Below are positions 4,982-38,122 of a stretch of 64,000 nucleotides of DNA, one piece after another. The position numbers and the translations under genes were made by a program. The stretch is from a virus. The notes under the pieces were generated by a model. That model saw nothing but the letters and a program-made list of their open reading frames with translations. It ran no database searches and was not told the origin of the DNA. Positions within the stretch are counted from its first letter, which is position 1, and each line of letters starts with the position of its first letter. The stretch lies in IMG/VR virus record IMGVR_UViG_3300028394_000040, one strand, 5' to 3'.

Positions 4982-5078
4982 TAGCCAGGACAGGATTCGA
5001 ACCTATACCGCGGCAAGTGAATAGTACTGACCTTTCGGTTACTCCCGTTTCCGCTTTCTACCATTAAACTACCTGACT
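4982..5078 (-). ncRNA. tRNA-like RNA lacking a canonical anticodon loop (97 nt)
   Basis: acceptor AGTCAGG/CCTGGCT; D-arm-like TAGTTTAATGGTAGAA; T-arm ATAGG-TTCGAAT-CCTGT; anticodon arm replaced by a long GCGG..CCGC stem containing ACC-GAAA-GGT. Confidence 0.7.
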
Positions 5079-5194: not shown

Positions 5195-5328
5195 TAGTCA
5201 GGACAGGATTCGAACCTGCACAGTCTCAAGAGTTGACATTGCTTGATGCATCAAGGAGACTTCCGGCATTTTACTCTAGTAGCGTCTACCGTCGGCAGGG
5301 ATCCCCCTACCCATTCCGCCACCTGACT
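5195..5328 (-). ncRNA. tRNA-like RNA (Leu-like D arm) with insertions and no clear anticodon (134 nt)
   Basis: acceptor AGTCAGG/CCTGACT; TGGCGGAATGG...GGTAGACGC D arm with inserted GTAGGG-GGAT-CCCTGC hairpin; T-arm GCAGG-TTCGAAT-CCTGT. Confidence 0.7.
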
Positions 5329-6705: not shown

Positions 6706-8520
6706 TCAATTATGCAACAGTTCTTTAGACTTTTTTCTAGTTTCTTCTACGTCAAATAGCTCCTCGTATTGTGCAAGCATAGCTTCTACTACTGGATGTC
6801 TGTGATTAGTTTTTAACATTATAGTCTCTACATCCTTTACTTTCTTAGATACCGTTAATAAGAATCTAAAACCGCTTTCGTTTTTATACTTTAAATCTAC
6901 TTGAGCTGTATCTCCACAAATAATCATCTTACTCCTAACTCCTAATCTAGATATAATCATGCTCATTTGTTCGTTAGTACAGTTTTGAGCTTCATCTACT
7001 ATTACTATAGAATCTAAAAAAGTATTATGGGTTACCTGACAGTTATCTGTTATATATAGCGAATCTTCTGCTGATACTGATATACACTGTGTCTCTTCAA
7101 AGGAGTATTCTTCAATAGAGACTATTCTTCTAGAAGGTTTTTCCCTAACTTCAAATAAAGATGCTTTTCGTTCTAAAGAGAAAGGATTAAATGCTTCAGG
7201 CATTCTTATCGACAGGTTGTAGCAATCGTGGTTGTAGTTTCTTCCGTACTTATCTACAGTTCCTGCAATTTTATTTAAAGCTACCTTTACTGTACCCCCT
7301 AAAGATTCTACTAAGAATTTTACTCCTTCAGCTAGCTTGTCTGAGATAGTATAGTAATGAGCAACAGAAGAGGTTTTTCTTTTAGTATGTGCACCTCCTG
7401 AGAATATACTCCCATCTGTATCCATAAGACCTCTAAGAAGATCTAATCTTTGCTGGATAGAACCTAGTAGGTATACTCCAGGGATAAACTTTGTTAAAGA
7501 AGAAGTACCTATTAGCTCTAATTCATCTAGTAAATTATAAAGGTTATTTTTAGCGTGACTAGATCTTACTACCTTACCGATGCCGTAATCATATAACGAA
7601 CCTACTCTCTTCTTTATAACAGTACCTTCAGGAAGAAGCTCTTGTACTTTGTCGATAAGCTCTGTATCTGCACTACAGAACGATATTCCTCCTCTTATAC
7701 ATCCATCTCCTAATAATAGTCCTAGAAGGTAAGGGCTAAGCGTTAGCTGCTTCTCTTTAAAATCTACAGCCTCTACCATTGGAAGAGACCATTTCTTTTT
7801 GTTAGTACCTGGTTGAAATATTTGCTCTTTTAACTCTAGAGTAGATTTTACTATCTTTGATTTGATTAACGGTTTGTTTGTATCTGTTACCTCCCATAAG
7901 TGATTTCCAGAAGCAAGTACCGATGAACCATCTGTAAAGCTGATCTTGTATACCTGCTCTGTACCCTGAGGAAATACTCCGGTAATCTTACATGGCTTTC
8001 CGTTTCTTCCTATAACCTCTTCACCTACTTGAAGGCTTCCCATTTCTTTCCATCCTTCAGGGGTTAGCACCTTACTATGTAAAGGCTGAGCTCTTCCACG
8101 CATGAAGGCTACAGGAACTATCTCTACTGTTTCATCTTTAATAATGCCGTCTATCTTATCTTTATTATAAAGCTGATAAAAGTTAGAGTAGATTGGTTGC
8201 ATCCAAGGTTGCATTTTATCTTTTAAGTCTCCTGGAAGGAATCCTATCTCTTCTCTTGAAACTGTAGGACGAGTTACTACTATCTTCTTTACTTGCTTTT
8301 TAAATAACATATCTAAAGCAACGTTACAAGCTAGTAATGTCTTACCACTTCCTGCCTGTCCTGAAAGTATAGATACAGTTGTGTTAAGGATTATTTCTTT
8401 TGCTGCTTTTTGTTCTTCGTTAAGTTGTAATTGAAATTTAATAGGTGCTTTTTTGTTTGCTTTCTCTTCTCTAATTTGTTCGGTAATTGAATCGAACTTC
8501 TCTGATCTATTTTCAGCCAT
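6706..8520 (-). CDS. phoH: PhoH-family ATPase interrupted by an intein
   Basis: Walker A GQAGSGKT; TRP, EIGFLPGDL, FMRGR|TF, DEAQN and GDTAQVDL motifs. Confidence 0.93.
   Translation of the reverse strand: MAENRSEKFDSITEQIREEKANKKAPIKFQLQLNEEQKAAKEIILNTTVSILSGQAGSGKTLLACNVALDMLFKKQVKKIVVTRPTVSREEIGFLPGDLKDKMQPWMQPIYSNFYQLYNKDKIDGIIKDETVEIVPVAFMRGRAQPLHSKVLTPEGWKEMGSLQVGEEVIGRNGKPCKITGVFPQGTEQVYKISFTDGSSVLASGNHLWEVTDTNKPLIKSKIVKSTLELKEQIFQPGTNKKKWSLPMVEAVDFKEKQLTLSPYLLGLLLGDGCIRGGISFCSADTELIDKVQELLPEGTVIKKRVGSLYDYGIGKVVRSSHAKNNLYNLLDELELIGTSSLTKFIPGVYLLGSIQQRLDLLRGLMDTDGSIFSGGAHTKRKTSSVAHYYTISDKLAEGVKFLVESLGGTVKVALNKIAGTVDKYGRNYNHDCYNLSIRMPEAFNPFSLERKASLFEVREKPSRRIVSIEEYSFEETQCISVSAEDSLYITDNCQVTHNTFLDSIVIVDEAQNCTNEQMSMIISRLGVRSKMIICGDTAQVDLKYKNESGFRFLLTVSKKVKDVETIMLKTNHRHPVVEAMLAQYEELFDVEETRKKSKELLHN
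7024..8091 (-). mobile_element. intein with LAGLIDADG homing endonuclease (356 aa, Ala-start, class 3-like)
   Basis: begins AQPLHSKVLTPEGW and ends VTHN|T; LAGLIDADG blocks LLGLLLGDG and LLRGLMDTDG. Confidence 0.92.
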
Positions 8521-36889: not shown

Positions 36890-37306
36890 CTACATAGAAA
36901 GCTTTATTCTTACCCGAATACAGGTCTGCGGTAATTTTTGATTTTTTAAATAATTGTTAACATAACCCATCATATTAGCAGAACCAATAGGGTTAGCTGA
37001 ATGTATGTAAATTTGAGGTAATGGAATACTTGTGGACATACTTTCTGCTACTAAAAACCTAGCACAGTCCATTCCTGTTTTTTCCAAGATATTATTATAA
37101 TCTAAGGTATAGTTAGGCGATCCATTTAAAATGTACTCTTGAATAGCTGAGTCTCCTAAGTCGTGATCTAAAGATATTACATCGTAGTTTTCTAAACCTA
37201 CTTGCTGAATATGTTTAACTAATTCTTCGAAGGTTCTTACAACTTCCCATTCTTTATCTAAAGGTGTTCTAATATCGTCTAGGTACAGTTTTATTTTATT
37301 CTCCAT
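36890..37306 (-). CDS. cyclic-phosphate-processing receiver-like domain protein
   Basis: LYLDDIRTP, ISLDHDLG, TGMDCARFL, HSANPIG. Confidence 0.75.
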   Translation of the reverse strand: MENKIKLYLDDIRTPLDKEWEVVRTFEELVKHIQQVGLENYDVISLDHDLGDSAIQEYILNGSPNYTLDYNNILEKTGMDCARFLVAESMSTSIPLPQIYIHSANPIGSANMMGYVNNYLKNQKLPQTCIRVRIKLSM

Positions 37307-37709: not shown

Positions 37710-37849
37710 ATAATTAAAGAGCTTTACTTTTTATCGTCGGTACTCTTTATGAAGGAGTGTCTAATTGGGCGCTCCTAACCCTGGTTCAGCACGTTTGTGT
37801 CGTCTAACCAGCCTCATCAGTTCTCGGCACAACCCTAGATGAGAGTCTG

Positions 37850-38007
37850 CTGTAGTAGATGGATTCGAACCACCAAGTGGACTTTAGGAACAAAACATGA
37901 TTGATGGTCAACCTCCACCGGGTGATATCCCGATTGTATTTTGTCTTTATCAGTTGTTCCACGTCCCCGAGACAGGAGGATGCGTAGGCCAGTTCCGCCA
38001 CACTACA
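37850..38007 (-). tRNA. tRNA-Asp(GTC) with an 89-nt variable-arm insertion
   Basis: acceptor TGTAGTG/TACTACA with G discriminator; anticodon arm TCCTC-CTGTCTC-GGGGA; T-arm GGTGG-TTCGAAT-CCATC. Confidence 0.75.
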
Positions 38008-38011
38008 GTAA

Positions 38012-38122
38012 GTATAGGAAAGTAGAAGATGGGTGCGTGGACATCTACTTTTACGATTGGCGTTTCTTACCGGTCGTATCCGCCCTTTCTACAGTTAAAG
38101 GATACATTCCAATCAACCTAAT
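38012..38122 (-). ncRNA. putative structured ncRNA upstream of the tRNAs
   Basis: helices TAGG/CCTA, GATTGG/CCAATC, GTATCC/GGATAC and AAAGTAGA/TCTACTTT. Confidence 0.5.

Follow-up and report, generated by a model that had tools for sequence, protein, structure and literature searches.

A tRNA-Asp(GUC)-like RNA with a giant variable arm in a freshwater phage, and its relatives in other phages and in Bacteroidota

The RNA-gene island and the anatomy of the Asp-like RNA

The source of the window (the whole stretch of DNA that was analysed, 64,000 nucleotides) is a freshwater phage, and its minus strand folds into a full cloverleaf between 38007 and 37850 (RNA position i corresponds to window coordinate 38008-i). 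This tRNA-Asp(GUC)-like RNA, referred to here as the Asp-like RNA, belongs to an island that is ordered, on the minus strand, as a terminator-like hairpin (38145-38131), a structured ncRNA (38119-38015), the Asp-like RNA, a 137-nt element and tRNA-Met(CAU) (37709-37637). The features of the Asp-like RNA and of two of its neighbours are the following:

37850..38007, minus strand: whole tRNA-Asp(GUC)-like RNA gene, 158 nt (read directly, and matched by the covariance model R1)
38001..38007, minus strand: acceptor 5' strand UGUAGUG (read directly; family alignment)
37982..37998, minus strand: D arm GCG/CGC, 3 bp, Leu-type (read directly; alignments)
37964..37980, minus strand: anticodon arm UCCUC-CUGUCUC-GGGGA (read directly; the stem covaries among relatives)
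37875..37963, minus strand: variable region of 89 nt, composed of C, the arm and UU (read directly; relatives compared)
37958..37962, minus strand: 5' strand GUGGA of the arm closing helix P1 (pairs with UCCAC at 37877-37881; covariation)
37945..37957, minus strand: 5' junction ACAACUGAUAAAG with the conserved word GAUAAA (alignments A4 and A5)
37890..37944, minus strand: arm helix P2 and the variable distal part that it encloses (RNAalifold on alignment A4)
37882..37889, minus strand: 3' junction UCCUAAAG with the conserved word CUAA (alignments)
37858..37874, minus strand: T arm GGUGG-UUCGAAU-CCAUC (read directly; family alignment)
37850..37857, minus strand: acceptor 3' strand UACUACA and discriminator G73 (G73 at 37850; 37849 is C)
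38015..38119, minus strand: structured ncRNA of about 105 nt, 7 nt upstream of the Asp-like RNA
37711..37847, minus strand: 137-nt multi-hairpin element between the Asp-like RNA and tRNA-Met

The acceptor strands UGUAGUG (38007-38001) and UACUACA (37857-37851) form six Watson-Crick pairs plus G7-U66, and U8 and G9 are present. The D arm reads GCG(G)/(A)CGC, with a G13-A22 mismatch and with A14, A15, G18 and G19 in its loop, and the anticodon GUC (37973-37971) is followed by U at position 37 and C at position 38. The original prediction had described an intact acceptor stem, a G discriminator, a GUC anticodon arm and a canonical T arm, all of which were borne out on direct reading, and the same holds for its 89-nt variable region (37875-37963), closed by GUGGA/UCCAC and containing an inner helix and sub-hairpins. 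In this region, P2 pairs ACAAAAU (37944-37938) with GUUUUGU (37896-37890), plus an (A)/(U) inner extension, and the distal arm holds two hairpins, CGGG-AUAUCA-CCCG and the T-arm-like GGUGG-AGGUUGA-CCAUC, which bears the family word GGUUGACCA.

The gene has the structural features of a tRNA, namely a 7-bp acceptor, the D, anticodon and T arms, U8, A14, G18, G19 and the T-loop UUCGAAU. The identity set of the Escherichia coli aspartyl-tRNA synthetase (AspRS) comprises G73, G2-C71, G34, U35, C36, C38 and G10, and it is complete in the window copy, with G10 being variable (A, U or G) across the family. Two features of an elongator tRNA-Asp fail, as position 37 is U instead of a purine and the variable region spans 89 nt instead of a 4–5-nt loop. 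Class II tRNAs carry a helical arm of about 10–24 nt, with which the position and the closing helix of the present arm agree but its 89-nt length does not; the shortest relatives, with a 26-nt region, conform to this class. Because of the 89-nt insertion, both ARAGORN and the tRNA family of Rfam fail on this gene: ARAGORN, suggested at the outset as a means of detecting it, does not call it with or without introns and reports only tRNA-Met(CAU) nearby, and Rfam gives no match, RF00005 included, at the gathering score or at E<=10. A 95-nt relative is labelled by ARAGORN as a plain tRNA-Asp. Rfam 15 contains no model for a long-armed Asp-type tRNA-like RNA, and a full-text literature search found no published description of such an RNA.

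The neighbouring 105-nt ncRNA is made of a helix GAUUGG/CCAAUC round a variable domain, followed by a hairpin whose 17-nt loop, UGUCCACGCACCCAUCU, is invariant. This exact loop word is found in >120 IMG/VR contigs, nearly always beside tRNA genes; both helices are compensated, and no Rfam family corresponds to the ncRNA. Of 43 distinct phage contexts, 26 have the ncRNA directly downstream of the Asp-like RNA, an arrangement seen in 0 of the 120 bacterial loci among the matches listed. RNA-library contigs cover 38015-38068 at a depth of at most 101, derived from diverged copies and with possible DNA carry-over, and among the contigs of a single RNA run none lies over the Asp-like RNA gene. The 137-nt element is precisely absent in phage G001, in L052 and in one contig of run X4, and L142 (489-617) contains a relative with 71% identity. 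We regard the element as a probable third RNA gene of the island, and an optional one.

Several candidate interactions and activities of these RNAs were rejected. A hammerhead (CUGAUGAG in the 137-nt spacer, CUGAUAAAG in the arm) has no Rfam match at E<=10, and its word is unconserved in bacterial copies. Pairing of the ncRNA loop UCCACG with CGUGGA of the arm is lost in GGUGA-type arms, and the complementarity of the arm word GACCAC to the T stem, present in phage copies, does not extend to bacterial ones.

Other elements of the window also deserve a description. About 550 nt downstream of the island, 36890-37306 (minus strand) encodes a 138-aa protein of the cREC_REC family (PF20274, E 5.8e-23), a cyclic-phosphate-processing receiver family that is tied to RNA-repair systems. 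A PhoH-like ATPase gene (6706-8520, minus strand) is interrupted by a LAGLIDADG_3 domain (residues 359-414), in an intein-like arrangement. Two more tRNA scaffolds are located on the minus strand at 4982-5078 and 5195-5328, with Rfam tRNA scores of 38.8 and 30.5 bits, respectively; they share the acceptor AGUCAGG/CCUG(A/G)CU, A73, a Leu-type D arm and a canonical T arm, and unrelated structured inserts replace the normal anticodon region. Relatives of these scaffolds are found directly downstream of GroEL in L009, L019, L034 and L025, and L035 (7629-7743) has the core of 5195-5328, with compensatory changes. In a related phage, a different tRNA-like scaffold of ~113 nt (L006, 7722-7834; acceptor UAUCGGAG/CUCCGAUA, T loop UGCAAGU) precedes tRNA-Met, that is, it occupies the slot of the Asp-like RNA in the window.

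Relatives in phages and in Bacteroidota chromosomes

An identical copy of the gene is present in G001, which is the nearest record, and in one metagenome contig, both of which are without the 137-nt element. A BLAST search by synteny via GroEL in 47 related phages gave no homologue besides the near-identical G001, and the exact 3'-end word, sought in IMG/VR and JGI metagenomes, returned the same allele only. In freshwater metagenome contigs, the stretch just upstream of the gene appears at very high depth and in many diverged contigs, and many of the contigs with the upstream ncRNA loop word have, directly upstream of it, a gene sharing the T arm and the 3' end of the window copy. A degenerate 3'-end pattern recovered at least 55 viral IMG/VR contigs, which yielded 24 distinct sequences of 95-170 nt. 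In species-representative genomes, a pattern in which the anticodon loop is joined to the T loop across 62-92 nt recovered at least 120 contigs, almost all from Bacteroidota, against an author's chance estimate of 8-16 matches. Carriers among the matches listed include Aquirufa, Algoriphagus, Cyclobacterium, Spirosoma, Marivirga, Flammeovirga, Saprospiraceae, Chitinophagales and others, the host groups of the family being Cytophagales, Chitinophagales, Saprospiraceae and their relatives, and the RNA was found in 13 of 151 evenly sampled Bacteroidota genomes (9%). Some chromosomes bear tandem arrays of 3-5 long-armed copies ~200-250 nt apart (L252, from Flammeovirga pacifica; L310; L234, from Marivirga sericea), and adjacent copies differ in their arms in L224, L225, L229 and L237. 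In 53 of ~110 bacterial loci, a divergent Lrp/AsnC-family regulator is encoded at a distance of ~175 nt, and this neighbour is simply a generic Lrp/AsnC-type regulator; the conserved phage neighbours of the Asp-like RNA have no informative Pfam family.

Covariance model R1, built from 65 bacterial chromosomal copies only, matches the window gene with 92 bits (E 7e-29) over model positions 1-147 of 147, and other phage copies with 68-123 bits; it also matches host class II tRNA-sized genes of 82-86 nt with 40-54 bits. In an alignment of 114 distinct sequences, which was fitted to R1 and is therefore biased towards the modelled structure, 99.1% of the stem cells form standard pairs and both sides have changed in 12 of 22 pairs. 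None of 500 shuffles reached the observed pairing and covariation, and when the partners were slid, pairing fell to 48-62%. When 12 phage copies were analysed independently with MAFFT and RNAalifold, the acceptor, D, anticodon, P1, P2 and T helices emerged, with 8 compensated pairs, P2 (alignment A4) having 7 pairs with double changes in 4. Both sides of P1 have changed in 3 of its 4 modelled pairs (GC/AU/UA), the D stem appears as ACG/CGU, GCG/CGC or UUG/CAA, and the anticodon stem, mostly invariant in bacteria and phages, shows covariation in the 114-sequence alignment. Covariance among relatives, proposed beforehand as a check, thus supports all the helices.

These data bear on whether the gene could be a decayed tRNA pseudogene or a chance fold. 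As would be expected in that case, tRNA finders miss it, and the energy of its single-sequence fold is no better than that of shuffles (z = -0.71), so that the case rests on the relatives. The match to the independent bacterial model (E 7e-29) and the compensatory changes in every helix make decay or chance practically negligible, and the insertion, which in a decayed tRNA was expected to be unique and unstructured, is both shared and structured among the relatives.

The anticodon loop CUGUCUC, including U37, is invariant in all phage and bacterial copies, as are G73, U8, A14, A15, G18 and G19. Acceptor pairs 1-72, 2-71 and 3-70 (U1-A72, G2-C71, U3-A70) are identical in 113 of 113 sequences, whereas pairs 4-7 covary. 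A C follows G73 in 127 of 127 bacterial copies, CCA being encoded in 25, and the acceptor/T branch is 7/5 in all copies. The window copy contains the signature set, which consists of CUGUCUC, U1-A72/G2-C71/U3-A70, G73-C74 and P1 with GAUAAA and CUAA. Judged by sequence and pairing, it is a genuine member of an uncatalogued RNA family that is common to Bacteroidota and phages, and whose acceptor end and anticodon loop are, by the same measure, under strong purifying selection.

The conserved base and the exchangeable tip of the arm

Arm length ranges from 23 to ~110 nt across the family, and the phage copies form a graded series of 23, 38, 45, 73 and 86 nt (single flanking nucleotides excluded). 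In this series, the interior of the arm grows from a 13-nt loop (95-nt RNA) through a small hairpin (110- and 117-nt RNAs) to a long second helix whose large loop often carries GGGUUGACCAC (145-158-nt RNAs). The junction words are kept across relatives (5' ..ACUGAUAAAG; 3' CCUAAAG), and the combination of GAUAAA and CUAA presumably resembles the UAA/GAN internal-loop motif. Two freshwater metagenomes contain near-identical scaffolds in which exactly 37882-37957 has been swapped for 65 other letters. The swap is confined to the interior of the closing helix, and therefore the base of the arm is constrained and its distal part exchangeable.

A second subtype differs in its junction; its arm tip bears a 10-nt palindrome, and its D loop often contains an inserted hairpin. 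It is represented, with a GGUGA- or GAGGA-type arm, by L053, L057, L177, L182, L185 and similar copies, in which the tip is a perfect 10-nt palindrome, GCUUGCAAGC or GCCGGCCGGC. This palindrome varies yet stays palindromic, and it cannot form a hairpin, which suggests loop-loop self-pairing of two RNAs. The GAUAUC of the window copy was also considered as a self-pairing palindrome and discarded, since it has 6 nt only and is expected by chance in 80 nt.

The original prediction left a choice between an unusual intron, a tRNA-fused ncRNA and a tRNA mimic, and of these a mimic or atypical tRNA has gained ground, while the conserved junctions and graded sizes argue against the intron. That the 89-nt arm is an intron or a mobile insertion, to be excised to give a tRNA of ~70 nt, is very improbable. 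The insert does sit at a defined position, and the window has two further insert-bearing tRNA scaffolds and, 550 nt off, a gene for a cyclic-phosphate-processing receiver domain, all of which would fit splicing. Against this, Rfam gives no match to a group I intron, a ribozyme or any other family, the junction words that are conserved lie inside the arm, the arm is reduced to a class II-like 23 nt at its shortest but never vanishes, and no insert-free allele is found among the listed matches (at least 55 phage and at least 120 bacterial contigs). Excision would leave a 3-nt variable loop, with U37 remaining. The archaeal bulge-helix-bulge has two 3-nt bulges 4 bp apart at the exon–intron borders, whereas the borders of the arm are, on inspection, the ends of a plain 5-bp helix.

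Coexistence with canonical tRNA-Asp and candidate roles

The complete 256-kb genome of phage G003 has 30 tRNA matches, including a canonical tRNA-Asp, in addition to the long-armed copy, and phage G004 also carries both; the canonical anticodon loops of these two phages are CUGUCAC or UUGUCAC. Phage G002 (96% complete) has the long-armed RNA, the ncRNA and one tRNA-Leu only. Five carrier bacteria have kept a canonical tRNA-Asp, in all cases with G1-C72, A37, a 5-nt variable loop and a GCGGG/CCCGU T stem. The long-armed RNA has in common with canonical tRNA-Asp(GUC), which is of class I, the nucleotides G73, G2-C71, G34-U35-C36, C38 and U33, and it differs from the canonical tRNA-Asp with which it coexists in these phages and hosts in each of the four traits just listed. 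The best reading of these comparisons is that the long-armed RNA is not the working tRNA-Asp of its carriers. The invariant U37, the large family in Bacteroidota and phages, and the normal tRNA-Asp of the carriers are points that had not been anticipated.

A working tRNA-Asp isoacceptor for GAC/GAU, in which the long arm is tolerated as in class II tRNAs, is accorded a rather low probability. The full cloverleaf, the GUC anticodon and the Asp identity set speak for it, as does the 95-nt relative that ARAGORN takes for tRNA-Asp, and short-armed members may decode; moreover, G002 lacks any other Asp tRNA. However, U37 is present in every copy, versus A37 in the canonical tRNA-Asp that occurs alongside it in phages and hosts, a normal tRNA-Asp is retained by the carriers, the T stem and U1-A72 are unlike those of canonical tRNA-Asp, and an arm of ~110 nt is unprecedented in decoding tRNAs. 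Class II tRNAs themselves (tRNA-Leu, tRNA-Ser and tRNA-Tyr; RF00005) have a helical arm at the same variable position of the cloverleaf, and tRNA-Leu further resembles the Asp-like RNA in its 3-bp D arm, A14, A15, G18, G19 and the potential for A15-U48; their arms measure 10-24 nt, in contrast to 23 to ~110 nt here, and the Asp-like RNA differs from them by GUC, U37, the discriminator G with U1-A72 and the lack of an RF00005 match at E<=10.

RNAs that depart from decoding provide other terms of comparison. The non-proteinogenic tRNA-Gly of Staphylococcus, used in cell-wall synthesis, is an extra tRNA that is charged by the normal synthetase and is a poor substrate for EF-Tu and the ribosome; the Asp-like RNA is likewise an extra tRNA beside a decoding one, but the tRNA-Gly is of normal size. 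Phage T4 species 1 and 2 (rnaC, rnaD) are stable RNAs of ~120-140 nt that are encoded in the tRNA cluster and co-processed with the tRNAs. By this description they are also stable RNAs of a phage tRNA cluster, but, unlike the Asp-like RNA, they lack a full cloverleaf with an anticodon arm. Long V arms with anticodons other than those for Leu or Ser have been reported in allo-tRNAs (Mukai et al. 2017, PMC5389517), GUC being among the commonest, and in the nev-tRNAs of nematodes (PMC3333845), and both groups are thought to mistranslate or regulate. Allo-tRNAs, known from Clostridia, Proteobacteria and Acidobacteria, have an acceptor/T branch of 8/4 or 9/3 (PMC5389517), whereas the present family has a 7/5 branch, belongs to Bacteroidota and phages, and has U37, far longer arms and sequence-conserved junctions.

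The model that we favour, at somewhat better than even, proposes that the Asp-like RNA would be a stable mimic or carrier form of tRNA-Asp that does not decode and acts off the ribosome, with the arm kept in the mature RNA. RNase P and 3' processing would release it from the RNA-gene cluster, CCA would be added to the processed RNA, and the arm would stay in the mature form. To judge from the identity set, AspRS probably binds or charges it, and this recognition is plausible because G73, G2-C71, G34-U35-C36 and C38 are intact. The pyrimidine at position 37, the bulky arm and a T stem that is not of the Asp type (G49-C65, G50-U64, U51-A63) would exclude it from routine decoding; the textbook rules here are the purine at position 37 and the effects of the T stem on EF-Tu. 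The invariance of U37 therefore argues against ordinary decoding, and it is as an RNA unfit for decoding that it is read as an off-ribosome mimic or carrier. Its partners would recognise it through the acceptor end and the anticodon loop, the arm would be a docking or specificity module, and the phage copy would supply or replace the host RNA during infection.

It could also be argued that the RNA is a decoy in phage–host conflict for an enzyme that acts on Asp-type anticodon loops, its distal arm being engaged in an arms race, and this is regarded as unlikely. The target envisaged may be an anticodon nuclease or a queuine/preQ1 transglycosylase. Phage tRNAs counter tRNA-targeting defences, and the hypervariable distal arm, swapped among near-identical strains, the retention of the RNA even by tRNA-poor phages, the intact U33-G34-U35 and the production of preQ1 by the window phage would all suit a decoy. 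However, free-living bacteria also have the RNA as a chromosomal gene in conserved synteny, and no nuclease or defence gene is consistently adjacent to it. The window phage encodes FolE, QueD, QueC and QueF, and the Asp-like RNA may be a substrate or competitor in queuosine/preQ1 chemistry. The connection between a GUC tRNA and preQ1 synthesis that was drawn originally is possible, because U33-G34-U35 is intact, but its specificity was not upheld, because the family is also present in bacterial chromosomes.

An off-ribosome platform for tRNA-dependent asparagine synthesis, in which AspRS would charge the RNA with Asp and GatCAB would convert it to Asn, is decidedly improbable. U1-A72 is reportedly the identity pair for GatCAB, which on this proposal, just as doubtfully, would read U1-A72/G73, with U37, the T stem and the giant arm barring the product from translation. 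It is equally doubtful that in bacteria the adjacent Lrp/AsnC-type regulator would control the Asp-like RNA, and an idea no stronger is that AT-rich, Asn-hungry phages would bring their own copy. The tRNA-Asn-type end U1-A72 with G73 does not vary (113 of 113), in contrast to the covarying pairs elsewhere in the acceptor stem, and neither does the Asp anticodon set; the divergent Lrp/AsnC-family regulator ~175 nt away in 53 of ~110 loci would find an explanation, but the family name AsnC does not imply asparagine. GatB is present in 13 of 13 RNA-positive sampled genomes, which is not significant against a background of 126 of 151 (~0.09 by chance). Five carriers possess AsnRS and GlnRS as well as GatB, and GatCAB is therefore unneeded there for Asn-tRNA or Gln-tRNA; no AsnB-type enzyme exceeds the cut-off in 2 of 5 carriers, in favour of the platform, but the other 3 do have AsnB, which counts against it. 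Finally, the RNA occurs in only 9% of the phylum.

If the Asp-like RNA is a non-decoding mimic or carrier, its conserved 7/5 cloverleaf, Asp anticodon, pyrimidine 37 and arm of up to ~110 nt would define a new class of tRNA-derived RNA, and since few structures in biology are as constrained as that of tRNA, such a class would be notable. The long-armed RNA is unseen by tRNAscan-type tools and by Rfam, and is therefore missing from annotations. Roughly a tenth of the sampled Bacteroidota genomes carry it, often as arrays, as do many phages, and its capture by phages suggests that it is important in infection.
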